DNA of 64,000 nucleotides, from assembly GCA_021163005.1 (NCBI GenBank), contig JAGGXP010000020.1, positions 164 to 64,163 of the forward strand. Reading direction: 5' to 3'. Position 1 is the first letter of the stretch; each line of letters starts with the position of its first letter. This document shows positions 1 to 35,158 of the stretch, in pieces. The notes under the pieces are model-generated. The model saw only the letters and a list, made by a program, of their open reading frames with translations, was not told where the DNA came from and searched no databases. Origin of the DNA: Candidatus Aenigmatarchaeota archaeon. Lineage in GTDB: Archaea > Aenigmatarchaeota > Aenigmatarchaeia > QMZP01 > JAFGSV01. Both the position numbers and the translations under genes were made by a program.

Positions 1-213
1 ACAACGAGGGAACCCTGTTCCCGATGCTTCCGCGTGAGTGGATGCAAGGGAATTTATTCCCGATGCTTCCGCTTGCGCCAAAAGCTTAACGAAAACAAGC
101 CTTTTACAGGAGCTCCGTTCCCTCCGGAACTTCACGTCCGCAAAAGCCTTGAGGGAAAAATGAATATTTACATTATAACGTGCTGTCGGGGAAATTTATC
201 CGTGCCTTCGTGT

Positions 214-332
214 CTCGGGTCAAAAGGCTGCTGAGCTTCGGATAACAGATTGCGCTGTCCGAACTCATCTTTTCCGTTAACACTTAACCATTTTACGGGA
301 GTTGAAACGTCCGCCAAAAGCTTAACGAAAAT
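214..332. repeat. Intergenic repeat module copy A (CTCGG-TCAAAAGGCTGC-GAGCTTCGGATAAC..GCGCTGTCCGAAC..TTTTCCGTTAAC..CCAAAAGCTTAACGAAAA)
   Basis: About 85-90% identical to 21960-22068 and 22218-22300. Contains the hairpin GAGCTTCGGA/TCCGAACTC at 233-266. The CCAAAAGCTTAACGAAAA motif also occurs at 78-95. Confidence 0.75.
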
Positions 333-512
333 GGTAAGAACATACCAGCGGCATCTCTTCTTTCAGGAAGCCTGTTCCGGGAAGCGCCTTATATATTGGC
401 GGCAGCCGGACTTTTCGTTAACGTTTTTGGATGTTTCTGAATGCCAATTCGGAAACAAGGGGATGCATTTCTGCGCCTTATTCCCGCAGTTTATCCTGTC
501 CAAAAAGGTTAG

Positions 513-676
513 TGCGGAGGCGAGGGTTCGAACCTCGGAACCCACTAAGGGAGCAGGTCTTGAGCTTCGACTTCACCAAGCAAGCGCTTTCAGCGCTCAA
601 GAGGCAATCTGCCGCGTTTAGCCCCCGACTGCTACGCAACAACAGCCTGCGGGTTTGACCACTTCGCTACCTCCGC
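513..676 (-). tRNA. tRNA-like gene with ~90-nt internal insertion (putative intron-containing class II-type tRNA; anticodon unresolved)
   Basis: Minus strand reads GCGGAGG-TA-GCG-AAGTGGTCAAACC-CGC ... CGAGG-TTCGAAC-CCTCG-CCTCCGC-A. The 7-bp acceptor stem is perfect, the T-arm with TTCGAAC loop is canonical, and the D-arm resembles class II (Leu/Ser) tRNAs. A CCC-TTAGT-GGG long-variable-arm-like hairpin precedes the T-arm. About 90 nt of insert carries its own stems (CTTGAGC..GCTCAAG and GCGC-TGAAA-GCGC). I could not fold a clean anticodon arm by hand. Confidence 0.4.
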
Positions 677-718
677 ATTTACAATAAGTAATACAATCAA
701 TGGTTTTAAAAGCAGCAT

Positions 719-1138
719 CTAACCGGAAAGCGACTGCAACTCTGTCTTGAGCCTGTCTATCTGATCGTATATGCTCTTGACGTAGTTTTCCACGTCGTCG
801 GGTGGTTTTATTGACGAAGACGTGTCAGGAGACGGGCCGGACTTCTGGAGTAGCTTCATATCTATTGAGGAGATTATGATGTTGACCTTGTCAAGAACCT
901 TGTTCGTGAGGCTCATGGCGGTCTTGAATTCCTTTTCAATCTCTCCCATGGCATCAAGGGCGTCCCTGAGGCCGAGTGAATAGGACCTCAGCTTCTGTAT
1001 GTCGTCGAGGAGCTCTTTGTATCTCTCGACCTTTACAAAAACAGGCGGCACCTTGGGCTTGCTTGAAGGAACAGGGAGAACAGGTTTTGTCTGTACGGCC
1101 TTCTTTATCTGGGACTCAAAATCTTCTGCCATAACCAC
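719..1138 (-). CDS. hypothetical coiled-coil protein
   Basis: 139-aa ORF with a heptad-like charged composition and a Pro/Lys-rich N-terminal segment. No recognisable catalytic motif. Confidence 0.45.
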   Translation of the reverse strand: MVMAEDFESQIKKAVQTKPVLPVPSSKPKVPPVFVKVERYKELLDDIQKLRSYSLGLRDALDAMGEIEKEFKTAMSLTNKVLDKVNIIISSIDMKLLQKSGPSPDTSSSIKPPDDVENYVKSIYDQIDRLKTELQSLSG

Positions 1139-1178
1139 TCAACCAAAAAGCTATATCTTATCTTTCGGTCCCTGATTT

Positions 1179-1937
1179 TTAAATGTTAACCGCCGGACCC
1201 CTTGAAGACCTCCACAACTCCCTGAAAAACTGCCTGTATGACAGCGCGACCTTTTCGCTTCTTATGAGCGTTATGACTGGATGCTCGGACCAGACTATGA
1301 CCGCGACCTTGCCGCCGTAGACCCATGTCGTGGAAGGCGTGTCGTAAAGCGCCTTGTTGAACCTCATTTCAGCGTTATACACTGGTTCACGGGACTTTGG
1401 CGCCCTTATCTTGTCGCTGTATATTATCTTCATGTGGATACGTGCCTGCGCACGCCTCCTGTGCCAGTTCCTCGAATACACCCTGAACATGTCCATGAAG
1501 CGTCCCTCGGCGCCGAACACGAGAAGCTCGGTACCGCTCCTGAGCACATCCTCGGCCACGGTCTTAAGGCCTTTCCTTCCCGTATATACTGTAGCCTCCT
1601 GCTTCTCCTTTGAAAGCGTCCTCTTCATCTCAAGTTCCGGAACAATCTCCTCAAGCTTTTGGCGCCTCTCCCTCAACTCCTCTTCCCTTTCCTCAAGATA
1701 GTGAAGGAACTTGCTGGGAGAAGCGGCCTCGAAATACCTGCGCTCGGCCTTCTTTATGTAGCCGACTAGCCCTTTCTCCGCAAGGCTTCTGAGCGCGTCA
1801 TATACATTGGTCCTGTTGACGCCGGAAGCCTTTGCTATCTCGCCGGCTGTCACGGAGCCCAGATCAAGCAGCGCCAGGTATATCTTGGCTTCATTTCCGG
1901 CAAGGCCGGATTCCCGTAAAATCTTTTCTACATTCAT
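1179..1937 (-). CDS. TrmB-family transcriptional regulator (N-terminal wHTH)
   Basis: N-terminus LAGNEAKIYLALLDLGSVTAGEIAKASGVNRTNVYDALRSLAEKGLV is a typical TrmB HTH. Length 252 aa. Confidence 0.65.
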   Translation of the reverse strand: MNVEKILRESGLAGNEAKIYLALLDLGSVTAGEIAKASGVNRTNVYDALRSLAEKGLVGYIKKAERRYFEAASPSKFLHYLEEREEELRERRQKLEEIVPELEMKRTLSKEKQEATVYTGRKGLKTVAEDVLRSGTELLVFGAEGRFMDMFRVYSRNWHRRRAQARIHMKIIYSDKIRAPKSREPVYNAEMRFNKALYDTPSTTWVYGGKVAVIVWSEHPVITLIRSEKVALSYRQFFRELWRSSRGPAVNI

Positions 1938-2080
1938 AGTGTTGTAATATAATATTACAACATAATTATATATAAGTACGAAGTTATCCGTTTTTTATGA
2001 ACGAAGATCATAATGTTGGAATTTTTTCAGAAAATATTTATGAAAACAAATAGAATGCGTCGGCCGGGATTCCCAGCTCT

Positions 2081-2135
2081 CTGAACCGCAGGGGGCACAT
2101 CCCCCTTCAGTTCTAAGGTGTTCCTGATTCCCCCT
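2081..2135. repeat. 55-nt structured element, identical copy at 22131-22185
   Basis: Exact 55/55 match. The sequence CTGAA-CCGCA-GGGGG-CACAT-CCCCC-TTCAG forms an extended hairpin. Confidence 0.8.
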
Positions 2136-2344
2136 TTATTTTCTTCTTCCGGGGGAAACCTGGGCACCATTCCTCTCTTCCCTTTAACGGGGAATAATGC
2201 TTTAAGGGGGCGTATAAGCGTAAGCTATCGTGGCCCCCTTGAGCCTTTGAACCCGGGTTACAGCGTTGGCAACGCCGTGTCATAACCAGACTAAACTACC
2301 GACGCGTGTGTAATGTTCTTGTATGTCAATTAATAAAAGTTTTT

Positions 2345-2644
2345 TCATCCGAATATCGCGCCGAAGCCGTCCGCGGCGCTCGATTCCTGCTTCTCGATGA
2401 TGCCGATTATATCTTTCGCTTCCTTGTCCTTCAGCTCTTTCGCCGAGTCCTTGAGAATCTCCCTCGCCTTCTTTATGGCTTCATCTTCGCCGTCGAGGAG
2501 CATGTAATATCCTTCCTTTTCCTTTTCCACCGAAGAGTTGTCCCTTATCGTTATACTCTGCCTTGAAACGAGCTCGTCGCCGTAAAGTCTGTTCTTTGCG
2601 CTGCCGTACTTCTCCTTCTCCACGAAAAACACTGCCTTCATCAA
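2345..2644 (-). CDS. hypothetical small acidic protein
   Basis: 99-aa ORF rich in K/E. No confident family assignment. Confidence 0.35.
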   Translation of the reverse strand: MMKAVFFVEKEKYGSAKNRLYGDELVSRQSITIRDNSSVEKEKEGYYMLLDGEDEAIKKAREILKDSAKELKDKEAKDIIGIIEKQESSAADGFGAIFG

Positions 2645-2666
2645 AACACCTCACTTTGAAATTAAA

Positions 2667-4070
2667 TTAGAGTATCCTGCTTTTAAAATAATCGCCGAGA
2701 AATGACGCAAGGTTTTCATTTTTCGCAGCTTCCCTTACAACGCCGGGGCCTTTGGCTATGCTGAATCCGGAAGCAATCGATTCCGCAGGATGGGAAGATA
2801 TGCCATTGGCCCTCAGTGTTTTGATGTCATGCTTAAGCATATCCCTGAGAAGGGCGCCTGCATCTGTGTACTCTCTCTTTATTTCTGCCACGAGGTTTGC
2901 GCCTTCGACCCAGATGCGTCCCTTTCCCCTGTATTTCTTTGTGAATTCATCGCTGTGCTTCTTCGAGAACGTGGGCGGGCCTGCCAGCTTTTTTATCTTC
3001 GGAAGTTTCCACACCTCCAGCTCCATGAAAATCAGGCAGCGCTTAGCATCACACCATACATCGTGCCCGAGCACCTTGAAATCAGCATCCTCCAATACCC
3101 CTTTCAGTCGTCTGGAAGTCCTCCTGAGCTGCGGATATATGACATCGTCAACAACATCCGGCCTTTTGAAAAATATGCCCAGACACTCTGTTCCCCTCTT
3201 CTCCATCATGGATGAAAGCGCCTTTGTACTGACCTGCATTCTTTTCACACGGAAATACTTCTCGTCAGGGTCTTTCAGGAACTCCCTGGCAGCTTCCTTG
3301 AATTTCTCAAAATTGGCAGGAGAAAGAGCAGCGGCGACATTCCTTTTTGAATCGACAGGGTCTATGACCACTAGCGGCTGGCCGAGGTAAATCTTCTTCA
3401 GGTCGGGCACTGTCTTGTGGTGTTTCCTGAGGTCTATGAACACCTTTCCGGCTTCCCACGTGGAAGCATCTTTTAGGAGGTTAAGAAAGCTTCTGTATCG
3501 TATTATGAGAAGCTCTGAAAGGTATCCGGAAAATCCCTCCACCCTGAGGTCCGAACCGTAGATTCCGGCTGCTTTCAGGAATATCTTGAGCAGCCTGACC
3601 TCAGAGGAAAGTTCCGGTGTGAGATTCTGCAGTATGTATTTGTTGTGATGAGGTGTTCTGTCAACTGCCGACTTTATCTTTTCCGGGTTCTTTATGTCGT
3701 AGCAGGGAACAAAATCAACATCATAGCCGCCTATCTTCGCCCTTACATAAGGATGCTCGGCGTATGCGATCTCATAGGTTCCCTCGAGCCTTTCGACTAT
3801 TTCTTTTGCAAGCGAAAGTCCCTTCTTCTCGAGCTCTGCTCTCTGGACAGTTTCCGGGAAGAGTATGAATATGTCGAATTCCTTCTTGTCCTTCAGCCAA
3901 GTATCCCTGAGATATGAACCGGCAAGCGTGTAGATGAGGCCGGCATTCTCAGTAACCTCCTTTGTTGCTCGCCGTATGCCGGCAAGAACCTTTTCGGTCT
4001 TTTTTCTGTCGTTTTCTGTGGGTGTTATGCGCCTGAGTACGCGCTGCAGAACCATAGAGGCGTCTTTCAT
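2667..4070 (-). CDS. cca: CCA-adding tRNA nucleotidyltransferase (archaeal class I)
   Basis: 467 aa. N-terminal polymerase-beta-like region follows the archaeal CCA enzyme layout (..AGSYLRDTWLKDKKEFDIFILFP..). The long C-terminal body fits cca. Confidence 0.7.
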   Translation of the reverse strand: MKDASMVLQRVLRRITPTENDRKKTEKVLAGIRRATKEVTENAGLIYTLAGSYLRDTWLKDKKEFDIFILFPETVQRAELEKKGLSLAKEIVERLEGTYEIAYAEHPYVRAKIGGYDVDFVPCYDIKNPEKIKSAVDRTPHHNKYILQNLTPELSSEVRLLKIFLKAAGIYGSDLRVEGFSGYLSELLIIRYRSFLNLLKDASTWEAGKVFIDLRKHHKTVPDLKKIYLGQPLVVIDPVDSKRNVAAALSPANFEKFKEAAREFLKDPDEKYFRVKRMQVSTKALSSMMEKRGTECLGIFFKRPDVVDDVIYPQLRRTSRRLKGVLEDADFKVLGHDVWCDAKRCLIFMELEVWKLPKIKKLAGPPTFSKKHSDEFTKKYRGKGRIWVEGANLVAEIKREYTDAGALLRDMLKHDIKTLRANGISSHPAESIASGFSIAKGPGVVREAAKNENLASFLGDYFKSRIL

Positions 4071-12002: not shown

Positions 12003-12062
12003 AATTAATTATGGGAGTGTTTAAATAAATGGGATACAAATCAGAAACGTGAAGGTGTGATT

Positions 12063-12473
12063 ATGAAATACAGGATAATAGATGACCTTACGTCAGATGT
12101 ACTTTTCAAGGCCCGGGGGAAGGATATGAAGGATGTTTTTGAAAATGCAGCACTGGCCATGTTCTCCGTGATATGCGAAGTTGAAAGGGTGAAACCGGAG
12201 AAAATGCTGGAGGTTGAGGTGCAGGCGGAAAGCGCTGACAGGCTCATGATAAACTGGCTTCAGGAGCTGATAGGACTTGTTGACACAGAATCAATGTTCT
12301 TTTCGAAGTTTGAGGTCACGGAAATAGGTGAAAAGCGTCTGAAGGCCAGAATATACGGCGAGGACATGACGCCGGAAAAGGGTGAAACAGTCGTCAAGGC
12401 CGTGACGTACTACAAATATAAATTCCAAAAGACTAAAGAAGGATACAGTGTGACAGTCAGCCTGGATATATAG
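12063..12473 (+). CDS. archease
   Basis: YRIIDDLTSDVLFKARGKDMKDVFENAALAM is typical of archease. It lies immediately upstream of rtcB. The ATG at 12063 is preceded by GAAGGTG. Confidence 0.8.
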   Translation: MKYRIIDDLTSDVLFKARGKDMKDVFENAALAMFSVICEVERVKPEKMLEVEVQAESADRLMINWLQELIGLVDTESMFFSKFEVTEIGEKRLKARIYGEDMTPEKGETVVKAVTYYKYKFQKTKEGYSVTVSLDI

Positions 12474-12481
12474 GAGATGTT

Positions 12482-13891
12482 ATGATGAAGGAAAAACTCG
12501 AAAGTGTCAATGAATTCGAATGGAGGTTGCCGAAAAGCGCCAGAAAGGAGATGAAGGTAGATGCGAGAATAATCGCCAACAGCAAAATAATGAATGCCAT
12601 AGAGGATGACGCTGTCCAGCAGCTCACCAATGTGGCATGCCTTCCGGGAGTGGTCGAACCTGTGATAGGGCTTCCGGACATGCACTGGGGTTACGGCCTT
12701 CCCATGGGAGCCGCTTCTGCATTCGACGCCAACGAGGGAATAATATCAGCCGGACTGTGTGGCTTTGACATAAACTGCGGCATAAACCTCATAAGAACCA
12801 ATCTTCCTTATGATGAAATCAAAAAGAAGCAGAAAGAGCTCGTCGAGGAGCTCTTCAGGGCAATACCCGTCGGCGTCGGCGCCAAGGGAAAGCTCAGGCT
12901 GACGAGGGACGAGCTTGAAGAGGTGCTTGTCAAGGGTATTGACTGGGCAGTTGAAAACGGCTATGCAACAAAGGACGACAAGAGGGCGACGGAAGAGAGC
13001 GGAAGGATGGATGGGGCTGACCCTTCAAAGGTCTCCGACCTCGCAAAGAAGAGGGGGCTGCCACAGCTTGGCACGCTCGGCGCGGGAAACCATTTCCTTG
13101 AAGTGCAGAGAGTGAGTGATGTCCTCGACAGCGAAACCGCGGATAAATGGGGTATAAGTGGTGAGAACCAGTCTCTCATAATGCTTCACTGCGGCTCAAG
13201 GGGCTTCGGCCATCAAATAGCAACAGACTACCTGAAGATACAGGAAGATGCTGTGAAAAAATACAGCATATGGCTGCCGGACAAGCAGCTTGCTTGTGCA
13301 CCAGTAAATTCCGACGAGGGTCAGGACTTCTTCGCAGCCATGCAAACCGCAGTCAACTATTCGTTCACCAACAGGGCTGTCATGACCAAATGGATAAGGG
13401 AAGTCTTTGAAAAGGTGTTCAGCCGCACATGGGAAGACATGGGCATGGATACCCTGTATGCCATAGCGCACAACATAGTCAAGCTTGAGGAATTCAAGAT
13501 TGACGGCAAGACGCGCAAGCTTTATGTTCACAGGAAGGGCGCAACAAGGTCGTATCCGGGCAAGCCTGTCATAATAGCCGGAAGTATGGGAACTAGTTCT
13601 TATCTTCTGCAGGGCACCGAAAACGCACTCAGGAAGACATTCGGCTCGTCAGCACACGGGGCCGGAAGGGCCATGAGCAGGCACAGCGCAATAAAGAAGT
13701 TCTGGGGCGGGAAGATAAAGGAGGAGCTTTCAGGCAAGGGGATTGAAGCAAGGAGTCCGAATCCGAAAAGCCTTGCAGAGGAGGCCCCGCTCGCCTACAA
13801 GGACGTGGAAGCTGTGGTTGATTCAGTGCACGGGGCCGATGTAAGCACGAAAGTGGCGAGGCTGGTGCCTGTATGCGTGGTCAAGGGATAG
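12482..13891 (+). CDS. rtcB: RtcB RNA-splicing ligase
   Basis: Motifs DINCGINL, HCGSRGFGHQ, HNIVKLE and SSAHGAGR. 469 aa. Confidence 0.9.
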   Translation: MMKEKLESVNEFEWRLPKSARKEMKVDARIIANSKIMNAIEDDAVQQLTNVACLPGVVEPVIGLPDMHWGYGLPMGAASAFDANEGIISAGLCGFDINCGINLIRTNLPYDEIKKKQKELVEELFRAIPVGVGAKGKLRLTRDELEEVLVKGIDWAVENGYATKDDKRATEESGRMDGADPSKVSDLAKKRGLPQLGTLGAGNHFLEVQRVSDVLDSETADKWGISGENQSLIMLHCGSRGFGHQIATDYLKIQEDAVKKYSIWLPDKQLACAPVNSDEGQDFFAAMQTAVNYSFTNRAVMTKWIREVFEKVFSRTWEDMGMDTLYAIAHNIVKLEEFKIDGKTRKLYVHRKGATRSYPGKPVIIAGSMGTSSYLLQGTENALRKTFGSSAHGAGRAMSRHSAIKKFWGGKIKEELSGKGIEARSPNPKSLAEEAPLAYKDVEAVVDSVHGADVSTKVARLVPVCVVKG

Positions 13892-22617: not shown

Positions 22618-23445
22618 ATGGGCAATTTCGAGAGGATATGCAGTGACATCAAATCCGTGAAGATACAGGGTGCCGAGAATGTGGCCATAGCAGGCATAAA
22701 GGCTTTAATGATTAAGAGCGATGCTGCGTCTATAAAAAAGCTTCTCTCCTTAAGGCCGACGGAGCCGGCGCTCAGGAATGCCGTCAGATTCGCTCGGAAA
22801 GACCCCAAAAACCTCGGGCCAATCGCGCTGAAGCATTTTGAGGTATCGAAGAAAAAGCTGGCTGACTACGGAGCAGAGAAGATTGAGGACGGCATGAATG
22901 TCTTTACCCACTGCCATTCATCAAGCGTAGTTGCCATACTGAAAAAGGCAAAAGAGCAGGGCAAGAAGTTTGAGGTTTACAACACAGAAACAAGGCCGCT
23001 TTTTCAGGGAAGAAAAACAGCAAAGGAGCTGTCATCCATGGGCATCAGGGTGACCCATGTTGTTGATTCCGCAGCGAGGATTGCCCTAAAAGACTGTGAC
23101 ATGTTTCTGTTCGGTGCCGATGCCATAACCAGCGAGGGGAAGGTTGTGAACAAGATAGGGACCGAGATGTTCGCAGAGGTTGCTGAAAAATACGACACAG
23201 ATGTCTATTCATGCACTGACTCGTGGAAATACGACCCCCAGACTGTGTTCGGCAAAAAGGAGCCCATTGAAATAAGGGACGCGGGGGAAGTGTGGCCCGC
23301 CGCGCCGAAAGGTGTCCGTGTCCTGAACCTCGCTTTTGAGAGAGTCAAACCCGAGCTCATAACAGCTGTAATATCTGAACTGGGGGTCCATCCGCCCACT
23401 GTCTTCGTTCAGGAAGTGAGAAGGGTCTACCCGTGGATTGAATAG
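22618..23445 (+). CDS. ribose-1,5-bisphosphate isomerase (e2b2/eIF-2B family)
   Basis: eIF-2B-like fold pattern, and its position immediately upstream of form III RuBisCO and AMP phosphorylase. AGGAGG lies about 16 nt upstream. Confidence 0.7.
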   Translation: MGNFERICSDIKSVKIQGAENVAIAGIKALMIKSDAASIKKLLSLRPTEPALRNAVRFARKDPKNLGPIALKHFEVSKKKLADYGAEKIEDGMNVFTHCHSSSVVAILKKAKEQGKKFEVYNTETRPLFQGRKTAKELSSMGIRVTHVVDSAARIALKDCDMFLFGADAITSEGKVVNKIGTEMFAEVAEKYDTDVYSCTDSWKYDPQTVFGKKEPIEIRDAGEVWPAAPKGVRVLNLAFERVKPELITAVISELGVHPPTVFVQEVRRVYPWIE

Positions 23446-23475
23446 CTTTTATTTGCAGTCCTCCAATATAGTATA

Positions 23476-24741
23476 TTGATAATTATGGGTTACATACAGA
23501 CTGGTTACAGGCCGGACAAGAACGACCTTGTCTGCGAGTTCTATATCGAGCCCGCAAAGGGCTCCACTGTAAAGAAAGCGGCGGAGCACGTGGCTTCCGA
23601 ATCCAGCACAGGCACATGGACTGACGTCGCCACAATGAAGCCGCGTATCAGGAATCTCGGCGCGAAGGTATTTGAGATAAAAGGCAAATGGGTGAAGATT
23701 GCCTATCCGTCCGAGCTGTTCGAGGGCGGCAACATGCCCCAGATATACAGCTCCATAGCCGGCAACATATTCGGAATGAAGATTGTCAGAAACCTAAGGC
23801 TCGAGTCGATGCACTGGCCGAAGAGCATAATGAAATCGTTCAGGGGTCCGATGTTCGGCATACCCGGTGTCAGGAAGCTGCTCAAGGTAAAGAACAGGCC
23901 CCTGCTGGGGACAATAGTAAAGCCGAAACTCGGCCTCAACGAGAAAGAGCATGCAAAGGTCGCTTATGATGCATGGAGAGGAGGGCTCGACATAGTCAAA
24001 GACGACGAGAACCTCTCCAGCATGAAGTTCAACCACTTTGAGAAAAGGGTAAAAGAGACATTAAAGATGAGAGACAGGGCAGAAAGGGAGACCGGAGAGA
24101 GAAAAATGTACATGCCCAACGTGACAGCCGAAAGCCGGGAAATGCTCAGAAGGGCCAGGTTCATCAGGGACAACGGCGGGGAATACATGATGGTTGACAT
24201 AGTCACAGCCGGATGGTCAGGACTTCAGACGCTGAGGGAAGAGAACCAGGACCTGAAGCTTGTCATGCATGCGCACAGGGCCGAACATGCCGCATTCACC
24301 AGGAACCCAAAACACGGCATCTCCATGCTGGTCCTGGCTGAGAGCGCGAGGCTGATAGGTGTGGACCAGATACACATAGGGACTGTTGTCGGGAAGATGG
24401 AAGGGAAAAAAGAGGACGTAATGGACACAGAGGATGAAATCGAGCATCGCATCATAAGGGAACACGGGCACGTGCTTGCCGATGACTGGGGAAGCATCAG
24501 GCCTGTTTTCGCTGTGTGCTCAGGCGGGCTCCATCCCGGACACCTGCCAAAGCTCGTTGCGATACTCGGCACCGACATCATAGCGCAGTTCGGCGGCGGC
24601 TGCCACGGTCATCCCGGAGGAACGGTTAAAGGCGCTGCAGCCATTAGGCAGGCCGCGGAGGCTGTCATGGAGGGCATTGATTTAAAGGAGGCTGGAAAAA
24701 GTAATTATGAACTCAGGGAAGCCTTGAAGAAGTGGTCATGA
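23476..24741 (+). CDS. rbcL: ribulose-1,5-bisphosphate carboxylase large subunit, form III
   Basis: GGLDIVKDDENL, KPKLGL and HAHRA motifs. 421 aa. Confidence 0.85.
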   Translation: MIIMGYIQTGYRPDKNDLVCEFYIEPAKGSTVKKAAEHVASESSTGTWTDVATMKPRIRNLGAKVFEIKGKWVKIAYPSELFEGGNMPQIYSSIAGNIFGMKIVRNLRLESMHWPKSIMKSFRGPMFGIPGVRKLLKVKNRPLLGTIVKPKLGLNEKEHAKVAYDAWRGGLDIVKDDENLSSMKFNHFEKRVKETLKMRDRAERETGERKMYMPNVTAESREMLRRARFIRDNGGEYMMVDIVTAGWSGLQTLREENQDLKLVMHAHRAEHAAFTRNPKHGISMLVLAESARLIGVDQIHIGTVVGKMEGKKEDVMDTEDEIEHRIIREHGHVLADDWGSIRPVFAVCSGGLHPGHLPKLVAILGTDIIAQFGGGCHGHPGGTVKGAAAIRQAAEAVMEGIDLKEAGKSNYELREALKKWS

Positions 24742-26282
24742 TGAAGCTTAAAGTGAAGATCCTTGGTCTTGAGGCCGAGAAGCCGGTCGTTGTAATCAAC
24801 AAATCCGATGCCGAAGAAATAGACGTGAGGCCGCTTGACAGGGTTGACATGACAACAGGCAGGAGAAAGGGGACAGCCATTGTCAATGTTGCCACGCATT
24901 TCATAAGGCCGGGTGAGATAGGGCTTTACAGCGAGATAGCTGACCACATGAAAGCCGCCAACAATGAAACCATCGATGTACTGCCTTCGAACCCGCCGTC
25001 ATCACTCATACACATAAGGGAGAAGCTTGCCGGAAAGCCGCTTGATGAGAAGGGGATGAGAAAAATCGTTGAGGATGCTGTAGCGAGGAAGCTTTCCGAC
25101 ATCGAGATGACGGCGTTCGTCACAGCCCTGTATAATCACGGCATGACGACAACGGAGGTTGCCGCTTTGTCAAAGTCCATGGCGTTCACGGGGAAGACGC
25201 TCGACCTCGGTAAAAAGGAAATATTCGACAAGCATTCAATAGGCGGCGTTCCTGGGGACAAGACATCGATGATGCTCGTTCCCATAATAGGGGCGGCAGG
25301 CCTTACAATACCGAAGACATCCAGCAGGGCCATAACGTCTCCAGCAGGAACAGCCGACAGATTTGAATGTCTTGCGCCTGTTGATCTCAAGCTTGAGGAG
25401 ATAAAGGCTGTGGTTAAAAAAGTGAATGCCTGCCTCGTCTGGGGAGGGGCAGTTGACCTTGCGCCTGCAGATGACCTTTTCATAAAAATAGAGTACCCGT
25501 TGTCGATAGACCCGCTTCTTCTGCCTTCTGTGATGTCGAAGAAGAAGGCGGTAGGCGCGAAGTATCTCGTCATAGACATACCGACCGGAGAAGGCACGAA
25601 AATCAAGAGCACCAAGGAGGCTGAGGTGCTTGCTGAAAAATTCATAGCCCTTGGAAAAAGCCTGGGTATAAAGACTGTCGGTGCCTCTACTTTCGGAGAA
25701 CAGCCAATAGGGCATGCAATAGGACCGGCTCTCGAGGCGCGGGAGGCTCTCTCGACGCTCATGGACGGCAAAGGCCCGGCAGATGTCGTGGACAAGGTAA
25801 CCAACGTTGCCGGCATGCTTCTTGACTTTAAGCTAAGGAAAGGAGGCAAGCAGGAGGCATTGAGGATTCTCAAGACAGGGAAGGCCTACAAAAAGCTCAG
25901 GGAAATAATAGAGGCGCAGGGCGGAAATCCTGACATAAAGCCGGATGACCTCGCTCTTGGCGCAAAGCGCATCGAACTGAAATCATCAGTCAGCGGTGTC
26001 GTTTCATGGATAGACAACAGAGCGATAGTCGAGGTGGCGAGGGCGGCGGGCACGCCGAAGGACAGGGGCTCCGGCATATACATACACAAAAAGATGGGTG
26101 ACAGCGTAAAGAAGGGTGACACGCTTCTAGAGATATACGCCGAGAAGGAATACAAACTTGAGAGGGCGCTGAAAATAACAAAGGAAGTCAGGGTAATGGG
26201 AATCGGCAAGAAGGTTGATATGCTTCTGGAAAAGATACCAAGGATGGTTGAGCATCCGAAATACTTCATACTGGAAAGGTAA
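24741..26282 (+). CDS. AMP phosphorylase (thymidine phosphorylase family)
   Basis: MKLKVKILGLEAEKPVVVIN N-terminus and SIGGVPGDKTSM. ATGA overlap with the rbcL stop. Confidence 0.8.
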   Translation: MKLKVKILGLEAEKPVVVINKSDAEEIDVRPLDRVDMTTGRRKGTAIVNVATHFIRPGEIGLYSEIADHMKAANNETIDVLPSNPPSSLIHIREKLAGKPLDEKGMRKIVEDAVARKLSDIEMTAFVTALYNHGMTTTEVAALSKSMAFTGKTLDLGKKEIFDKHSIGGVPGDKTSMMLVPIIGAAGLTIPKTSSRAITSPAGTADRFECLAPVDLKLEEIKAVVKKVNACLVWGGAVDLAPADDLFIKIEYPLSIDPLLLPSVMSKKKAVGAKYLVIDIPTGEGTKIKSTKEAEVLAEKFIALGKSLGIKTVGASTFGEQPIGHAIGPALEAREALSTLMDGKGPADVVDKVTNVAGMLLDFKLRKGGKQEALRILKTGKAYKKLREIIEAQGGNPDIKPDDLALGAKRIELKSSVSGVVSWIDNRAIVEVARAAGTPKDRGSGIYIHKKMGDSVKKGDTLLEIYAEKEYKLERALKITKEVRVMGIGKKVDMLLEKIPRMVEHPKYFILER

Positions 26283-30056: not shown

Positions 30057-30848
30057 TCATGGCTGGTTAATTGTTGTAATTGTTATCGGCTTCATGACTG
30101 CCTTCCCATTATCATAGACGGGGAATTTCTGCTTTGTCACTGCTGTGACATTCACCACGCATCCATTTTCGCTGCTGATTATTGCGGTTTCAACTGTGCA
30201 GCAGAAGGTTTCATGCTTCTGGTTTATCTCACCGGGATTGCACGCCTCCAGCTTTGTTCTGGCAGATTCGGCAGCATCCTTCAACTGCCTGTAAAGCTCA
30301 ATGAAGGGGGCATTGACCGTTATGTTTATCAGCGAGCTTCTCTGTATTGTGATGTCCTGAGTTTGGGATATGCGCTTGACTGTGACAGGCGAATCTCCAT
30401 GTGCAACTATCCTCAGCGAGCCTCCGTTAGGGTAAATCCTCACATTCCTGTAAAACGGGATTTCAGCAGGGAACACGAATGTCCCTGTATATTCCTTTGT
30501 GTATTTTTCCATATTTTTGGTTGTCGCGTCCGCAAGGGCCTGAATAAGGACGGCCTCGCCGGTCGCGCTGTCTGCGCTTCCGTCAGACCATAGAGCATTT
30601 CCTCCAGGTATCTCTCCTGACTTTCCCAAGTCGTACATGGCCTGGTAAAGCGACAGCTTCGCAGACTCTTCGAGATAGAGCTTTGCAAGCAATGCAGAGT
30701 CGTCCATTATGTAAACTATGTTGTTTATGCGTATTTCGGTGCTGCTCTTCTGCCAGTTAGAAGCGGATTTCAGGATGAATACTCCAATGACTATGAAAAT
30801 GAGTATAAGGAACGACATGTAAATGATGTTTGCATAAGCCTTCCGCAT
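30057..30848 (-). CDS. secreted/membrane-anchored hypothetical protein (first gene... last in operon)
   Basis: N-terminal TM anchor. The start overlaps the upstream stop. Confidence 0.5.
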   Translation of the reverse strand: MRKAYANIIYMSFLILIFIVIGVFILKSASNWQKSSTEIRINNIVYIMDDSALLAKLYLEESAKLSLYQAMYDLGKSGEIPGGNALWSDGSADSATGEAVLIQALADATTKNMEKYTKEYTGTFVFPAEIPFYRNVRIYPNGGSLRIVAHGDSPVTVKRISQTQDITIQRSSLINITVNAPFIELYRQLKDAAESARTKLEACNPGEINQKHETFCCTVETAIISSENGCVVNVTAVTKQKFPVYDNGKAVMKPITITTINQP

Positions 30849-31822
30849 CAGTCAGTCACCCCCTCATTGAGGTTCCTTATGTCCTGCATGGCTGCATTCA
30901 TGCTTGACTCGCTCGGTATCATCCACTCGAAGTGCATGGCATCCTTCACTGAGTTGAAGTCGCATCCCCAGCGGAAATGATGATTCCTGAAGGCGTCTAC
31001 GACGCATTTCGGGATGTCTGTTATGCAGGTGTTCCTGCCGTTGCATTTGGGATCCTTCGGGCAGTTCGGGTTGTTGCCGGGATTGATGTCTATTGCCAGA
31101 CCGTAGGAATGCATGCTCATCACCTCTGGGTTGTTGGTATTGGGTCTGCAGCTGTATGTGCCTGCATCCCCGGCACCTGCACTTTCGTTCCAGAAGTCGT
31201 ATTTCTTTGTTTCCTCGTCCGTGCATTTCTTTATGTCTTTAACAACTTCCTCGAAGTCATCTGCTGCCAGCTTGTTGACGTACACATCCCTGCCCATGAA
31301 GTTGATGCTGACAAGGTGGTTCCTTATGTATTGGTCATCTCCCTCGGCTCTGCAGTCACCGAACAGCTTGCTCCTCTGCGAAAACGACGAGAAGTCTGTA
31401 GATATGCGGGGAATCGCGAAGGCCGCCTTTCCTGTCCTGCCCCCCGGAAGCGGTATGTCGACATACACCAGCTCCCCTGTCTCGGTGTTGCCATACTTTT
31501 TTACTTCCTTCATGGTTTCATCGTAAAGCCGTATGCCCGTGTCCATGGATGCGGCAAGTTCTTCTATGCCGCTGTCGCTGCAGCCCAGTCCTTCAATGAT
31601 GCATGAGATTATCTCGAGGTTGCTGAACGGTTCCGTCTTTGCCTTCAGCAGCGGCCCGATTTTTCCTGTGCCGTCGTTGATTGAAACAGATATGTCTGCA
31701 TGGGCCTTCAACTGCACAGCCTTTGACAGGAACGGAATGGTGTGAATAATCATCACCACTGCCAGCACTGCCAGAGACACTAATATCAGCCCCGCAAATC
31801 CTATTGAAGCCTTCTTCATCAT
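30848..31822 (-). CDS. membrane-anchored LAS/M15-family peptidase (D-Ala-D-Ala carboxypeptidase/L-Ala-D-Glu endopeptidase-like)
   Basis: N-terminal TM helix. SMHSYGLAIDIN (SxHxxGxAxD) and FRWGCDF..DAMHFEW motifs match the M15/VanY-type zinc peptidase signatures. Confidence 0.6.
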   Translation of the reverse strand: MMKKASIGFAGLILVSLAVLAVVMIIHTIPFLSKAVQLKAHADISVSINDGTGKIGPLLKAKTEPFSNLEIISCIIEGLGCSDSGIEELAASMDTGIRLYDETMKEVKKYGNTETGELVYVDIPLPGGRTGKAAFAIPRISTDFSSFSQRSKLFGDCRAEGDDQYIRNHLVSINFMGRDVYVNKLAADDFEEVVKDIKKCTDEETKKYDFWNESAGAGDAGTYSCRPNTNNPEVMSMHSYGLAIDINPGNNPNCPKDPKCNGRNTCITDIPKCVVDAFRNHHFRWGCDFNSVKDAMHFEWMIPSESSMNAAMQDIRNLNEGVTD

Positions 31823-31826
31823 GACA

Positions 31827-33278
31827 TCACCCTGAAAGAGCCTTCCTCAGCTCGCCATACCTCAGCATGACCATCTCCACGTAATTGTCGTGCTCCCTCT
31901 TTACATTATCATTGTCTGTGTCCGGGCATCCCCAGCCCACGTATCCCCTGACAGCCGCCTTCCAGCCGCTGTATTGGAGCGTTCTGAAGCATCCCTCTGC
32001 CGAATGCCCATTCTTGTAGGTGTCGTATTTTTCACTGAGCAGCTTTATGCCCTCCCTGATATTCGTTTCAGGGTCATCATAACCTCTGACGTCTTTTGAT
32101 ATCTGCATCAGCCCGCAGTATCCGTAGTCATTGCATAGGCTGCCCTGGGAAGGCTCTTGGGTGCATGATGATTCCTGCATCATTATTGACAGGGGAAGCA
32201 GCGGGTCTGGTATGCCGTATTCCTTGGAATACTCCACAATCCACGAGGCGTAATCACTGCACGAGGTGCCGCAGGAGCATCTCCTGTTTATTATGAGGCC
32301 GATCGTGTTGGCATGGTGTATCGCACTGAGAACATCCGCAGGCGTCCTGTCTGCTGGCGTGACCTCAATGCCTGCCGCGTCGCTCCATTCACTTCCGCTG
32401 CCGGAACCGCCAAAGCCTCCCCCTCCGTAATCAAAGCCGCTTGTGTATTCGGCACGTCTTTCCATGTCGATGTCCAGCTTCAGAGGGACGGCGAAATCAC
32501 CGGCGAAGCGTATGCATACCTTCTTCCCGCGGGTGCTGTCACACTCCCAGCTGCCGCTGAAAGTCTCGGTGACTATCCTTTTCAATCCTGAGTTCGGCAG
32601 TATTTCCTTTGCGCTTATCCCTGCCTCGGGCTCAATCCAGGCAAGGATGTCATCCTCGCCGTTGAAGACAGGCGTGACTATCTGTTTCTTTATGTCGTCT
32701 GCGCCCATGAGCTGATTCTGAAGCACAGAGAGGCTGCTGCAGGCAACTGGTCTGTAGTTTCCATTCACGGCAGCGGTGTCACTGCATGTGTAGCTGCTGT
32801 AGATGTCGACAGCCATGTTGTGCTCATCGAGCCTGTAGGCATGGATGACGTAATCCCTTCCACTTTCGAGTATGGTCTGCTTCTTGTCGAGCACGGGCAT
32901 TATCGGTGATTTCATCGTCAGGTAGACAGTATGTTCAACTCTTCCCTTTTTCCCGTCAAAAACCCATGTTCCTCCCGAAGGTATGGTACTTAGCTTCATG
33001 AAATTGTCGGATAGCCCGAGCGACTGCGGACCCTCCGTGGACATGGAACTCATCTTAAGGTATTCCGTCTCAGTGCCGGTGCCTGCGAATGCCGCCAGCC
33101 TGCCTGCGGCGAGGTTTGCATATTCCATCGACCGTAGCTCGTCGCTTGATGTCGCTGTGTTAATGGAGAAGGCTATAAGCGGGGCAACTACCAGTGTGAG
33201 CAGCAGCAGCAGTATGGCTATGAATATGATTGTGCCGGCGGAGAATTCTATGTCTATGTCCATCTGCCCTTTCAGCAT
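31827..33278 (-). CDS. membrane-anchored protein with C-terminal SLT lytic transglycosylase domain
   Basis: MMQESSCTQEPSQGSLCNDYGYCGLMQIS contains the catalytic E-S..GLMQ motif of family 1 SLT/GH23. N-terminal hydrophobic anchor and a Gly-rich linker GGGGFGGSGSGS. Confidence 0.65.
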   Translation of the reverse strand: MLKGQMDIDIEFSAGTIIFIAILLLLLTLVVAPLIAFSINTATSSDELRSMEYANLAAGRLAAFAGTGTETEYLKMSSMSTEGPQSLGLSDNFMKLSTIPSGGTWVFDGKKGRVEHTVYLTMKSPIMPVLDKKQTILESGRDYVIHAYRLDEHNMAVDIYSSYTCSDTAAVNGNYRPVACSSLSVLQNQLMGADDIKKQIVTPVFNGEDDILAWIEPEAGISAKEILPNSGLKRIVTETFSGSWECDSTRGKKVCIRFAGDFAVPLKLDIDMERRAEYTSGFDYGGGGFGGSGSGSEWSDAAGIEVTPADRTPADVLSAIHHANTIGLIINRRCSCGTSCSDYASWIVEYSKEYGIPDPLLPLSIMMQESSCTQEPSQGSLCNDYGYCGLMQISKDVRGYDDPETNIREGIKLLSEKYDTYKNGHSAEGCFRTLQYSGWKAAVRGYVGWGCPDTDNDNVKREHDNYVEMVMLRYGELRKALSG

Positions 33279-33706
33279 GCGTCCACCTCGGCATAAGGCA
33301 TTTCAGGCCTCTTGGTTATGCAGATAGATTGTGGTTTTGTTATGGTCTTTTCAAAGCCCCCGCTGGCGGGAAGCGTGTTTATCCTGCTCGGGCTCTTCGA
33401 GGTCTTGCCGGATATTTTGTATTCGTTTATAACATACCACCCGGCCCTCTCAATCTCATAGCCGTCCTTTTTTCCCTTCTCCTCATAGGATATGCTCAGA
33501 GATTCTACGGAGTCCAGAGCCACCGGTATGCGCACAGAGCCCGCCTCTAAAGACGAAAGCGTGTCTATGTACAGCGCCACTGTGTCGCCGAGGCTGAAGG
33601 GATTGTCTTCGCTTAACGGGCCCACAACCCTCGTTGCTATGATGAAGAAGAAAAGCGATATGATTATTGCGAATGCCACGACAACAGCCAGCCTGGATGC
33701 CTCCAT
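33272..33706 (-). CDS. small membrane-anchored hypothetical protein
   Basis: N-terminal TM. ATGA coupling with the upstream gene. Confidence 0.45.
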   Translation of the reverse strand: MEASRLAVVVAFAIIISLFFFIIATRVVGPLSEDNPFSLGDTVALYIDTLSSLEAGSVRIPVALDSVESLSISYEEKGKKDGYEIERAGWYVINEYKISGKTSKSPSRINTLPASGGFEKTITKPQSICITKRPEMPYAEVDAC

Positions 33707-34318
33707 TCAACCACCACTGCCCGTGCTTTCAGAATAAACTATGCGGCAGGTCTTGCCTTCTGGGGACGCTTTTACGTAAAGCGGATACGTGCGGCTGAAG
33801 GTTTCTCCGCCGTTTCCCGGGATGCACTCCCAGCTTCCCGTCACCACGTTCCTTTCGCAGGTCTCAATGCCCGGCTGGAGCCCTGTGAAATCGCATTTCA
33901 TTGTGAAGACCGCCGGCTCCGAGTCCCTGAGATACCTGATATCCCTATGTGCCCATGCCTCCTTGATTTTGTCTAATTTCCTCGGCAGTGCTATTATGAA
34001 CGTGCCTGCTCTGCTGTCATCGCAGGCATTTATGCAGGCGCTCGTCTTTTCCGTGCCGTATTGGTTGCATGTGAGCTTGCAGACATTGGAATCACCAGTG
34101 AAGACGATTTTGTAGACACACTGCGAATCAAGCTCCAGGTTCGCCTGAGCACGTATCCTCCCTTCAAGTGGGGCAAGCCCTTTGAGCACCTTGGACCAGC
34201 AGGGATTCGATGTCAGGAGGGACGCCTTGAAAGCGAAAACTACAATCAGAAACAGCACGAACATTATGCCAAGCACTGTTGTCATGGTTTTTACAACAGG
34301 CGCGAGTCCCTTTTGCAT
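33707..34318 (-). CDS. Cys-rich secreted protein with pilin-like N-terminus
   Basis: N-terminus MQKGLAPVV..VLGIMFVLFLIVVFAF has a KG-hydrophobic signature. About 12 Cys. Confidence 0.5.
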   Translation of the reverse strand: MQKGLAPVVKTMTTVLGIMFVLFLIVVFAFKASLLTSNPCWSKVLKGLAPLEGRIRAQANLELDSQCVYKIVFTGDSNVCKLTCNQYGTEKTSACINACDDSRAGTFIIALPRKLDKIKEAWAHRDIRYLRDSEPAVFTMKCDFTGLQPGIETCERNVVTGSWECIPGNGGETFSRTYPLYVKASPEGKTCRIVYSESTGSGG

Positions 34319-34510
34319 ATAGAATAATTGAAGGGCATGTCTTAAATGGGTTTCATCATGAGACGAATGTTGTTATCACATTGAGCACTATGATGCCTAG
34401 CACGAGCGCGAGAATTATGCCTGCTATCATGAGAAACATCGTGGGCAGTGTATCGCCTTTGTGCATAACAATAATTTGCCGGCATGGCTTTTAAATGGGA
34501 ACGAGGCGCG

Positions 34511-35158
34511 TCAGGCGCTGTACCTGCGTATCGTCATCGTGTACTGCGGCACGTTCTGCACCCACGGCCGGCAGTAGCCGCCCTCCCAGCAGTAGCAGTG
34601 GGTCGTCCTGCCGGTATCCGGCACGCATCCTATCTCCGCTATGGTGTCCTGACCGTACTGGTCCACATAGCTTGTCCTTATCAGTTTGTAGAACGCTTCT
34701 ATGCCCTCCTGCGGGGTTTCGTATTTTGCCCACTTCCCGCAGCTCTCCTGCCCCTCCTTCGCCATAATGCAGAAGAAGTTGTTGCAGTCCTCTGTTATGC
34801 CCTCGCATGTGGCCTTTCCGAGTGATGTCTCCTGCTGCGAGACTGCCACGGCAAAAGCAGGGTCTATGTCGTAACTGACGCCGTATTTGTAGAAGGCGTG
34901 GCCCTTGTATTTCAGCTTGGGGCCGCCGTTATGCATCAGGTAGTCCACTATCTGCTTCTCCGTGACCTTCGGGTAGGATGCCGAGAATACAACGCTGCCA
35001 GACGATTCGCCGTAGCTTCCTTGGTAATCGCCACCGCTGCCTGCCGCTTTGTTCACTTCAGGAGCCTTCTTGGACAGCACGGCTGTCGCCACTATTATGG
35101 CTATGACAATCGTAAAAAAGATGAAAATAGACTTTGACAGCTCAATCTGTCCCTTCAT
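34511..35158 (-). CDS. class III signal peptide (prepilin-like) protein with putative murein hydrolase-like domain
   Basis: N-terminus MKGQIELSKSIFIFFTIVIAIIVA. The FAVAVSQQETSLGK segment weakly recalls the catalytic Glu region of GH73/SLT-type hydrolases. That domain call is low confidence. Confidence 0.5.
   Translation of the reverse strand: MKGQIELSKSIFIFFTIVIAIIVATAVLSKKAPEVNKAAGSGGDYQGSYGESSGSVVFSASYPKVTEKQIVDYLMHNGGPKLKYKGHAFYKYGVSYDIDPAFAVAVSQQETSLGKATCEGITEDCNNFFCIMAKEGQESCGKWAKYETPQEGIEAFYKLIRTSYVDQYGQDTIAEIGCVPDTGRTTHCYCWEGGYCRPWVQNVPQYTMTIRRYSA

Follow-up and report, generated by a model that had tools for sequence, protein, structure and literature searches.

A class II tRNA-Leu(CAA) gene of a DPANN archaeon, predicted to be spliced from three exons

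What kind of gene is a tRNA-like element that has perfect acceptor and T arms, far too many nucleotides in its body and no visible anticodon arm? The question is raised by positions 513 to 676, minus strand, of a 64-kb stretch of contig JAGGXP010000020.1 (the whole stretch is called the window here). An original prediction, made from the letters of the DNA, had placed at this site the acceptor helix GCGGAGG/CCUCCGC, the T arm CGAGG-UUCGAAC-CCUCG and a discriminator A, and all three are there. The variable-arm hairpin CCC-UUAGU-GGG that it described is also present and covaries to CUC/GAG in orthologs. The remainder had been taken for a single insertion of about 90 nt. It consists instead of 80 nt in two blocks (37 + 43) with the 9-nt exon ACGCGGCAG between them. 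Likewise, the anticodon arm that could not be formed by eye, GCAG|G - CUCAAGA - CCUGC, appears once both blocks are removed. With a probability of about 90%, the locus is a functional class II tRNA-Leu(CAA) gene of a DPANN archaeon, composed of three exons and two introns of the bulge-helix-bulge (BHB) type. This estimate draws on an exon-intron layout, motifs and a mature sequence established by comparison, and on cleavage and ligation steps that we infer.

The gene sits at the limit of what standard tools detect. The Rfam tRNA covariance model RF00005 matches exactly at 513..676, where the alignment spans the full model (1-71) with two large insertions. The score of 30.4 bits is only 1.4 bits above threshold (gathering score 29; E = 0.024 for the 64-kb window), and no further Rfam tRNA match occurs in the window even at E <= 5. 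Orthologs with one intron score 38-42 bits, and the form at locus L002 is missed altogether by Rfam. ARAGORN finds no tRNA in the window. Runs that include its intron mode return nothing, or nonsense calls of tRNA-Asn or tRNA-Ala with a forced canonical intron, and the orthologous locus is not called in any intron-bearing ortholog run; for introns at non-canonical positions the program is thus uninformative. ARAGORN does recognize the 84-nt RNA spliced in silico as tRNA-Leu(caa), and finds no tRNA in its precursor.

Exons and introns across orthologs

The precursor RNA (window 676..513) reads GCGGAGGUAGCGAAGUGGUCAAACCCGCAGGCUGUUGUUGCGUAGCAGUCGGGGGCUAAACGCGGCAGAUUGCCUCUUGAGCGCUGAAAGCGCUUGCUUGGUGAAGUCGAAGCUCAAGACCUGCUCCCUUAGUGGGUUCCGAGGUUCGAACCCUCGCCUCCGCA. 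Its 164-nt body, numbered s1..s164 (window position = 677 - s), encodes no CCA, and all features of the gene discussed below lie on the minus strand. Exon 1 (655..676) holds tRNA positions 1-21, which comprise the 5' acceptor strand, U8 and A9, the D-stem strand GCG and the D-loop sequence AAGUGGUCAA. It is colinear with the intron-less genes at L009 and L014 and with the one-intron genes at L003, L005 and L006. Intron 1 (618..654; s23-59) is the 37-nt segment ACCCGCAGGCUGUUGUUGCGUAGCAGUCGGGGGCUAA, located in the D-loop at position 21/22. Exon 2 (609..617), the 9-nt ACGCGGCAG, carries position 22, the D-stem strand CGC, G26 and anticodon-stem positions 27-30, and it supplies D-stem and anticodon-stem strands to the spliced cloverleaf. 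Intron 2 (566..608; s69-111) is the 43-nt segment AUUGCCUCUUGAGCGCUGAAAGCGCUUGCUUGGUGAAGUCGAA at anticodon-stem position 30/31. Exon 3 (513..565) begins with G31 and continues with the loop CUCAAGA, whose anticodon CAA occupies 562..560, then the stem strand CCUGC, the variable arm, the T arm, the 3' acceptor strand and A73. Both introns were delimited by ortholog comparison together with the BHB motif.

The predicted exon junctions in the mature RNA are GUGGUCAA|ACGCGGCAG|GCUCAAGA. The placement of the first is ambiguous within a run of A residues, such that sites from 20b/21 to 22/23 are equivalent, and the BHB rule sets the D-loop cuts at s22|s23 and s59|s60 (tRNA position 21/22). The 30/31 junction is unique because its flanking nucleotides permit no alternative cut. 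The spliced 84-nt product, GCGGAGGUAGCGAAGUGGUCAAACGCGGCAGGCUCAAGACCUGCUCCCUUAGUGGGUUCCGAGGUUCGAACCCUCGCCUCCGCA, is laid out as GCGGAGG UA GCG AAGUGGUCAAA CGC G GCAGG CUCAAGA CCUGC UCCCUUAGUGGGUUC CGAGG UUCGAAC CCUCG CCUCCGC A. Splicing completes a cloverleaf with a 7-bp acceptor stem, a 3-bp D stem, a 5-bp anticodon stem with a 7-nt loop and a UUCGAA T-loop. Failure to find any BHB-flanked model with a 7-nt anticodon loop had been named as the sign of a pseudogene or repeat remnant; such a model is found, with the loop CUCAAGA after splicing. The leucine identity features, read from the sequence, are the anticodon CAA, the discriminator A73 and the long variable arm. By general identity rules these three features assign a tRNA to leucine, and aminoacylation of this one is predicted on that basis.

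Orthologs were collected by two routes. Four relatives were located through conserved synteny, and 30 more loci were retrieved with a degenerate exon-3 pattern from one genome per species and from JGI metagenomes; 24 unique genes were taken from all loci. The order TrmB, 136-aa open reading frame (ORF), tRNA, L18e/L13/S9/S10 is kept in the four relatives, with an intergenic gap of 234 to 421 bp. In three of these four, Rfam reports the second insertion only, and the D arm GCGAAGUGGUCAAACGCG is uninterrupted, which is the sequence predicted from removing s23-59 from the window gene. The titles of the records with the orthologous tRNA name Aenigmatarchaeota, Woesearchaeota or an uncultured archaeon, and the genes in them have zero, one, two or three introns. 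When the exon-3 pattern is run over CP070804.1, a 742-kb record whose title gives it as the chromosome of an Aenigmatarchaeota metagenome-assembled genome (MAG), it yields one stretch, L013, in the two-intron form.

The intron series is as follows. Four loci (L009, L014, L020 and L025) have no intron and a gene length of 84 nt. Twenty loci (L003, L005-L008, L010-L012, L015-L017, L021, L022, L024, L028, L029, L031-L033 and L035) have the 30/31 intron only and measure 125-138 nt. D-loop and 30/31 introns occur together, in genes of 127-225 nt, in the window, L027, L002, L013, L023, L019, L034 and the L018/L030/L036 type. The L027 gene, on a metagenome contig whose flanks have diverged, is identical to that of the window. 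One locus, L026, has three introns (D-loop, 30/31 and T-loop 59/60) and a length of 283 nt. The intron-less genes read ...GCAAAGUGG(C/U)CAAAUGC(A/G)GCAGGCUCAAGACCUGC... and are base-for-base colinear with the predicted spliced product; at the site of intron 2 all four are contiguous, as GCAGGCUCAAGA. More than one intron at non-canonical positions had been among the possibilities first raised for this locus, and the colinear intron-less and one-intron orthologs, along with BHB motifs at both insertions, bear it out.

These same comparisons bear on the proposal that the gene contains one intron of about 81 nt. In that model the first GCAGGCU (650..644) is joined to CAAGA (562 onward), giving the junction AAACCCGCAGGCU|CAAGA and an 83-nt tRNA. 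Its appeal is that a GCG...CGC D arm can be drawn on the genomic sequence, and the D arm originally drawn, GCG-AAGUGGUCAAACC-CGC, was of this kind. The 5' GCG of that drawing is correct. The CGC is a decoy at s26-28 that belongs to intron 1. The D stem actually takes its 3' strand from the CGC at 616..614 (s61-63), and the spliced D-loop AAGUGGUCAAA is the same in three orthologs that lack intron 1. The 9-nt exon, as ACGCG(G/A)CAG, is retained in 24/24 unique genes and directly follows exon 1 in the one-intron orthologs, and the D arm required by the single-intron model, AAACCCGCAGG, is found in no ortholog. Moreover, the D-stem CGC of the 83-nt product overlaps its anticodon stem, so both cannot form, and a BHB scan gives no candidate with a 3' site at RNA 113-115. 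A single large intron is therefore extremely unlikely, and ortholog comparison favors the three-exon gene.

The two introns have different histories. Intron 2 is homologous across the whole clade, and the copy in the window matches that of L005/L008, from an Aenigmatarchaeota MAG, at every nucleotide. The D-loop site has accepted at least six unrelated introns: 37 nt in the window, about 60 nt in L002/L013/L023, 60 nt in L019, 29 nt in L034, 18 nt in L026 and 10 nt in the L018 type. The L002, L013 and L023 introns are homologous to one another, and the interior of window intron 1 is unrelated to those of L002, L019 and L034. The window gene differs from L005/L008 by the 37-nt D-loop block and one compensated variable-arm pair, and a 59-nt D-loop block is the only difference between L002 and L011. 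Such near-identical pairs imply repeated, precise gain or loss of the D-loop intron.

The source of intron 1 was sought in two ways. A BLAST search of the window and all 36 loci finds no second copy, the only matches being itself and L027. An origin by tandem duplication of exon 2/intron 2 (AAACCCGCAGGCUG versus AAACGCGGCAGAUUG) was considered and rejected, as 4176 of 5000 shuffles attain its local alignment score of 10.

Three other loci have peculiarities of their own. The three-intron gene L026 (Ga0315294_10045875, minus strand, ~1413..1131) has introns of 18 nt in the D-loop, 70 nt at 30/31 and 111 nt at T-loop 59/60, the last with a perfect BHB core (exon UUCG+AA, intron CGAA+AA). In L018/L030/L036 the D-loop insert is only 10 nt long, AAUCGACUAA or AAUUGACUAA, shorter than the quoted minimum intron length of 11 nt (PMC4090602). 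Here the helix GGUC/GACU is closed by a 6-nt loop, which makes this a motif of the bulge-helix-loop type. Finally, L022 (Ga0315275_10095209) carries, 15 nt past its complete tRNA (gene 2908..3045), a second copy of a tRNA 3' end, GCGGAAATCCGGCCCTCCGCA. The extra copy is of the allele type of L026/L032 (T stem CCGGC) and resembles what a replaced 3' exon would leave behind, or else the footprint of an integration event.

Splice-site motifs and competing readings

Under the BHB rule, the 5' exon and the intron each end in four helix and two bulge nucleotides, and the cut falls after the second bulge nucleotide. A mechanical scan with this rule recovers both splice-site pairs, RNA 22|60 and 68|112. 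At intron 1, the 5' strand of the central helix is GGUC (657..660; tRNA G18 G19 U20 C20a), which pairs with GGCU (620..623) at the 3' end of the intron. In RNA numbering the core pairs are G17-U57, G18-C56, U19-G55 and C20-G54, the bulges are AA|A and AA|A, and a 4-bp inner helix CCCG/CGGG follows. At intron 2, the strand CGGC (611..614; tRNA positions 25-28) pairs with GUCG (568..571) near the 3' end of the intron. Its core pairs are C63-G109, G64-C108, G65-U107 and C66-G106, the bulges are AG|A and AA|G, and the inner helix has 5 bp, UUGCC/GGUGA, with one extra unpaired A. One further candidate, 29|56, has an 8-bp inner helix, but its excision would leave a 24-nt 'D-loop' and no ortholog supports it.

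Conservation of these pairings was assessed in gapless junction alignments of distinct sequences. The core helix of intron 1 is paired in 8/8 distinct orthologs, with the pair types GU/GC and UG/UA/CG, and double changes are seen at all four pairs of the inner helix. The core helix of intron 2 is paired in 15/15 distinct junctions, where the variable pair is GU in 9, AU in 4 and GC in 2. The covariation score at the intron 1 site is 0.50 versus 0.25 for shuffles, and none of 500 shuffles reach 0.50; for intron 2 the corresponding values are 0.186 and 0.118. The pairing is also specific to the register. Paired cells make up 87.5% at the intron 1 site, versus 28-55% after the 3' partner is slid, and 74% at intron 2, versus 26-51%. 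Every D-loop intron ends in a 3-nt bulge and a wobble complement of the 5' helix strand of the exon, which is GGUC, but GGCC in L019 and GGCU in L026; four variants occur (GGCU, GACC, GGCC and GACU).

Several observations weigh against the reading of two BHB-spliced introns. ARAGORN calls the 83-nt product of the single-intron model tRNA-Leu(caa) as well. BHB-like 4-bp cores are common by chance, with more than 100 candidates in 164 nt, so the case is built on ortholog comparison and not on the motif by itself. Neither motif has the strict hBHBh' form. Their outer helices measure 0-1 bp, and with this helix essentially absent both introns are assigned to the relaxed BHB class. The inner helix of intron 2 needs a 1-nt register shift in about half of the orthologs, where the two registers track a 1-nt indel, AUUCAUC versus AUCAUC. 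The conformer with both BHB motifs is predicted at -60.1 kcal/mol, about 10 above the minimum free energy (MFE) fold (-70.3). A splicing endonuclease (tRNA_int_endo) was not found among the window ORFs scanned with five Pfam batches and precomputed labels. Finally, actual cleavage and ligation at the two junctions are deductions from sequence.

In a thermodynamic model, the two BHB cores can coexist if one D-stem pair is given up. Relaxed BHB motifs are documented for non-canonical introns and are tied to endonucleases of broadened specificity (PMC4033280; PMC5829648), and the catalogued archaeal intron sites include 20/21, 22/23 and 30/31 (PMC4090602).

A second alternative sees the element as a tRNA-derived pseudogene, or as a gene that insertions have inactivated, in which the extra blocks are scars. 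The Rfam score barely above threshold and the failure of ARAGORN on the precursor would fit a decayed gene, as would intron 1, which only recently came to distinguish the gene from that of L005, the nearest relative. Loss might also be tolerated, since UUG codons could be read by tRNA-Leu(UAA) through wobble pairing. Against decay, all exons are intact, and a single class II cloverleaf (RNAalifold consensus) accommodates 20 distinct spliced orthologs, with 9/24 pairs kept through double changes. The compensated pairs are 3-70, 5-68 and 7-66 in the acceptor stem, 12-23 in the D stem, 27-43 in the anticodon stem, one in the variable arm and three in the T stem. Both insertions have covarying, BHB-compatible boundaries, and six unrelated D-loop inserts would not be expected to share the GGUC wobble complement and 3-nt bulge if they had landed at random. 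The promoter box is conserved, the gene at L027 is identical despite its diverged flanks, and the element is neither repeated in the window nor matched more than once per genome in the scan. The suggestion of a disrupted gene, which the original prediction had left standing beside that of a single large intron, finds no more support in the orthologs than the latter, and a pseudogene is very unlikely.

Self-splicing group I or group II introns, or a mobile element, might also interrupt a leucine tRNA gene, as group I introns do in bacterial tRNA-Leu(UAA). Cyanobacterial and plastid tRNA-Leu genes are familiar hosts of group I introns. Those introns use the 34/35 site, which neither insert occupies here. 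Inserts of 37 and 43 nt are far too short for self-splicing, no Rfam intron family matches the window even at E <= 5, the host is archaeal, and no second copy of intron 1 occurs in the window or the fetched loci. This explanation is next to impossible, and two introns removed by the archaeal BHB pathway remain the preferred account.

Expression, processing and genomic setting

The signals around the gene fit independent expression. A TATA-box-like element, TTTTAAAA, lies at 704..711, which is 28-35 nt upstream of the mature 5' end, and a TTTTTAAA-type box is present ~23-35 nt upstream in most orthologous loci. A T5 run at 502..506, 7 nt past the discriminator, is likely an archaeal termination signal, and most orthologs have T-rich trailers. 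No ortholog encodes CCA after the discriminator.

A plausible course of maturation begins with transcription of the tRNA gene from its own TATA-box promoter. The precursor would then fold so that each pair of exon-intron boundaries adopts a 4-bp helix with two 3-nt bulges, one on each strand, and little or no outer helix. By analogy with established archaeal tRNA splicing, EndA would cut after the second nucleotide of each bulge, and RtcB, helped by archease, would join the three exons. RNase P, 3' trimming and CCA addition would complete the tRNA. Genes for some of these activities are found in the window. RtcB RNA ligase is encoded at 12482..13891 on the plus strand (PF01139) and adjoins archease at 12057..12473 (PF01951), both Pfam labels being those of the identical L001 genes. 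An archaeal class I CCA-adding enzyme (2667..4070, minus strand; PF01909, PF09249, PF21133) is needed because the tRNA gene encodes no CCA. A gene for Pus10 (57456..58616) is present in the same 64 kb as the archease, RtcB and CCA-adding enzyme genes.

The neighborhood is archaeal. In addition to the class I CCA-adding enzyme, RtcB and archease, the flanking genes encode a DnaG-type primase (Toprim), a TrmB-family regulator, RadA, TFB, form III RuBisCO and AMP phosphorylase, type IV pilus proteins and Pus10. The nearest named homologs of the TrmB-like neighbor are from Candidatus Aenigmarchaeota (77% identity), followed by Woesearchaeota and Nanoarchaeota (~57%). Archaeal neighbors, homolog labels and the titles of the ortholog records together identify the host as a DPANN archaeon. 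With BHB motifs at both introns, this lineage agrees with the archaeal BHB-dependent processing suggested at the outset. The G+C content of the window is 49%.

Several features of the surrounding DNA are recorded here for completeness. Directly upstream of the tRNA, across a 43-nt gap, is a 139-aa ORF (719..1138, minus strand) with no Pfam match, whose position and size (136-137 aa) are kept in all four syntenic relatives. A plus-strand 123-aa ORF at 250..621, antisense to the tRNA gene, is almost certainly spurious. The L18e homolog expected from synteny downstream of the tRNA was not found in window 1..512. Between the genes for the CCA-adding enzyme and TrmB, L005 (2654..4846) and L006 (390..2558) carry a TrkH-TrkA-tRNA-Gly(GCC) block that is missing from the corresponding interval of the window (1937..2667).

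Farther away, at 22618..26282, genes for an e2B2-type isomerase homolog, form III RuBisCO and AMP phosphorylase stand side by side. This trio is the archaeal nucleotide-salvage (AMP) pathway common in DPANN. At 30848..35158 (minus strand), an M15-family D-Ala-D-Ala carboxypeptidase-like domain and a weak glucosaminidase-like domain occur among ORFs without a Pfam match. This cluster may have cell-wall-degrading functions, which are of interest for an episymbiont.

A possible methylation guide and related systems

Why has intron 2 persisted when introns in the D-loop come and go? One tentative and on balance unlikely answer is that intron 2 also carries a minimal box C/D-like guide, which would direct 2'-O-methylation of the tRNA's own wobble nucleotide C34 by fibrillarin. 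Such a guide would comprise an antisense element, UCUUGAGC, together with a D'-like CUGA, a C'-like UGAxG and a short hairpin closing a kink-turn (K-turn) or K-loop. It would act in cis, or in trans after excision or circularization, and splicing would follow a switch to the BHB conformer. This idea is modeled on the tRNA-Trp intron of Euryarchaeota, and it would add to the two-intron explanation without replacing it.

The antisense element (595..602; s75-82) is a perfect complement of tRNA positions 31-38 (GCUCAAGA). An 8-nt Watson-Crick complement to these positions arises in shuffled sequences at a frequency of about 0.003-0.007 per sequence, with about 0.005 for the window gene, and the BHB model has no need of complementarity between intron and anticodon loop. 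Complements of at least 6 nt are present in 18/22 unique genes that bear intron 2, including L019, L030, L034 and L036, which are divergent and otherwise have unrelated intron interiors. The speculative D'-like box CUGA (590..593) begins one nucleotide past the complement. It is found at this spacing in 16/22 unique genes, with CCGA in two more, and the fifth upstream nucleotide is always opposite C34. This is the geometry of the box C/D rule, in which the target nucleotide faces the fifth position upstream of the box (PMC7994747). In Pyrococcus, C34 of tRNA-Leu(CAA) is a predicted target of C/D small RNAs (sRNAs; PMC7668247; PMC7994747).

The other half of the putative guide is GUGAAGU (570..576), an equally speculative C'-like box that overlaps the inner and central helices of BHB-2. 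Toward the 3' end of intron 2, every junction keeps the same UGAxG, despite variation in the strand it pairs with. The window gene fits the K-turn register exactly, with the C-stem AAGC/GCUU and the 3-nt bulge GGU followed by G.A, A.G, A.U and G-C. The unconstrained MFE fold contains the duplex between intron and anticodon loop and is more stable than the BHB conformer. This modeled difference suggests that the precursor may have two alternative states, as proposed for pre-tRNA-Trp.

Other evidence speaks against a guide. Inspected by hand, the intron-2 sequences show neither a C box 12 nt before the CUGA nor a D box 12 nt beyond the C'-like element, and with these terminal boxes absent the structure is a half-mer at best. 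The antisense element is 8 nt long versus the usual 10-12 nt (PMC7994747). A C-stem in K-turn register is present in only 5/19 genes with guide and box, those of window/L005, L006, L012 and L022; the G.A/A.G register is always available, and short-spacer K-loops are possible in L018/30/36 and L034. In L006, L012, L019 and L023, the CUGA(G) simply forms a Watson-Crick hairpin with CUCAG. The CUGA is lost in L007, L021 and L013, and the complementarity in L013 and L031. No Rfam C/D family matches the window at E <= 5, a pattern search of 273 kb yields no canonical C-D'-C'-D sRNA, and fibrillarin, Nop5 and L7Ae were not found among the window ORFs in the Pfam batches and precomputed labels described above. 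Shared ancestry may account for the motifs, and the target was set by the search pattern.

A separate observation concerns L006, where positions 608..656 (plus strand) give a weak Rfam match to sR1 (21.8 bits versus a gathering score of 45; E = 0.14). This stretch holds GAUGAUGA and GUGAUGA, lies inside an annotated TrkH gene and is probably a chance match.

Comparison with the tRNA-Trp(CCA) intron of Euryarchaeota shows what is shared and what is missing. That intron harbors a guide of the box C/D type, responsible for Cm34 and Um39 (Clouet d'Orval et al. 2001; Singh et al. 2004, summarized in PMC4090602, PMC7994747) and is called a unique case of an intron-borne guide (PMC4090602; PMC7994747). 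Like intron 2, it has a complement to its own anticodon loop followed by CUGA, with the fifth upstream nucleotide facing C34, and its guide-target pairing and BHB are mutually exclusive folds. However, it lies at the canonical site 37/38, measures about 65-105 nt and includes four boxes (C, D', C', D) with two guides. Intron 2 is at 30/31, has 43 nt, only D'- and C'-like boxes, an 8-nt guide and no terminal K-turn, and its motif is lost in some orthologs. The Pyrococcus stand-alone C/D sRNAs have the same predicted target (PMC7994747; PMC7668247), but they are independent genes with full boxes, whereas the candidate here is inside the intron of its own target. It is doubtful that the 30/31 intron is a second, independent tRNA intron with its own modification guide, of a single-K-turn form UCUUGAGC-N-CUGA ... 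UGAxG. If it were, a role in C34 methylation would explain the retention of intron 2 across the clade versus the free turnover of D-loop introns, and intron-encoded tRNA modification would extend past the single known case of tRNA-Trp.

As a tRNA-Leu(CAA) gene with two BHB-type introns, the locus has closer precedents. Archaeal tRNA genes with up to three introns are known, and positions 20/21, 22/23, 30/31 and 59/60 are among those listed (PMC4090602; PMC4033280). In Thermoproteales (Pyrobaculum, Thermofilum and Caldivirga), short non-canonical introns with relaxed BHB boundaries are likewise gained and lost rapidly between close relatives (Sugahara et al. 2008 and Fujishima et al. 2010, as reviewed in PMC4033280, PMC4090602). 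In contrast to those crenarchaeotes, the host here is an Aenigmatarchaeota-like DPANN archaeon, whose endonuclease is expected to be α4 with an 'L3' loop or of another type, and not (αβ)2 with the crenarchaeal loop (PMC5829648).

The gene also resembles those of ARMAN/Micrarchaeota and other DPANN lineages with small genomes, which have non-canonical and multiple tRNA introns (Fujishima et al. 2011, PMC3239211; Kaneta et al. 2018, PMC5829648). Gene disruption is reported to be more frequent in DPANN tRNAs, and their tRNA sets seem incomplete as disrupted genes escape prediction (PMC5829648). Aenigmarchaeota are outside the genomes analyzed in PMC3239211 and PMC5829648. In the papers searched there was no account of this gene, of the 21/22 and 30/31 intron pair in tRNA-Leu(CAA), of a series from zero to three introns or of tRNA introns in Aenigmatarchaeota, which is weak evidence of novelty.

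Multi-intron tRNA genes with non-canonical positions are already well described in Thermoproteales and are expected in DPANN. What this locus provides is a concrete tRNA gene that routine annotation misses. Searches anchored on exons would recover such disrupted tRNAs and lead to better estimates of both completeness and decoding capacity in reduced DPANN genomes. Furthermore, one orthologous gene with zero, one, two or three introns constitutes a compact natural series for the gain, loss and replacement of archaeal tRNA introns.

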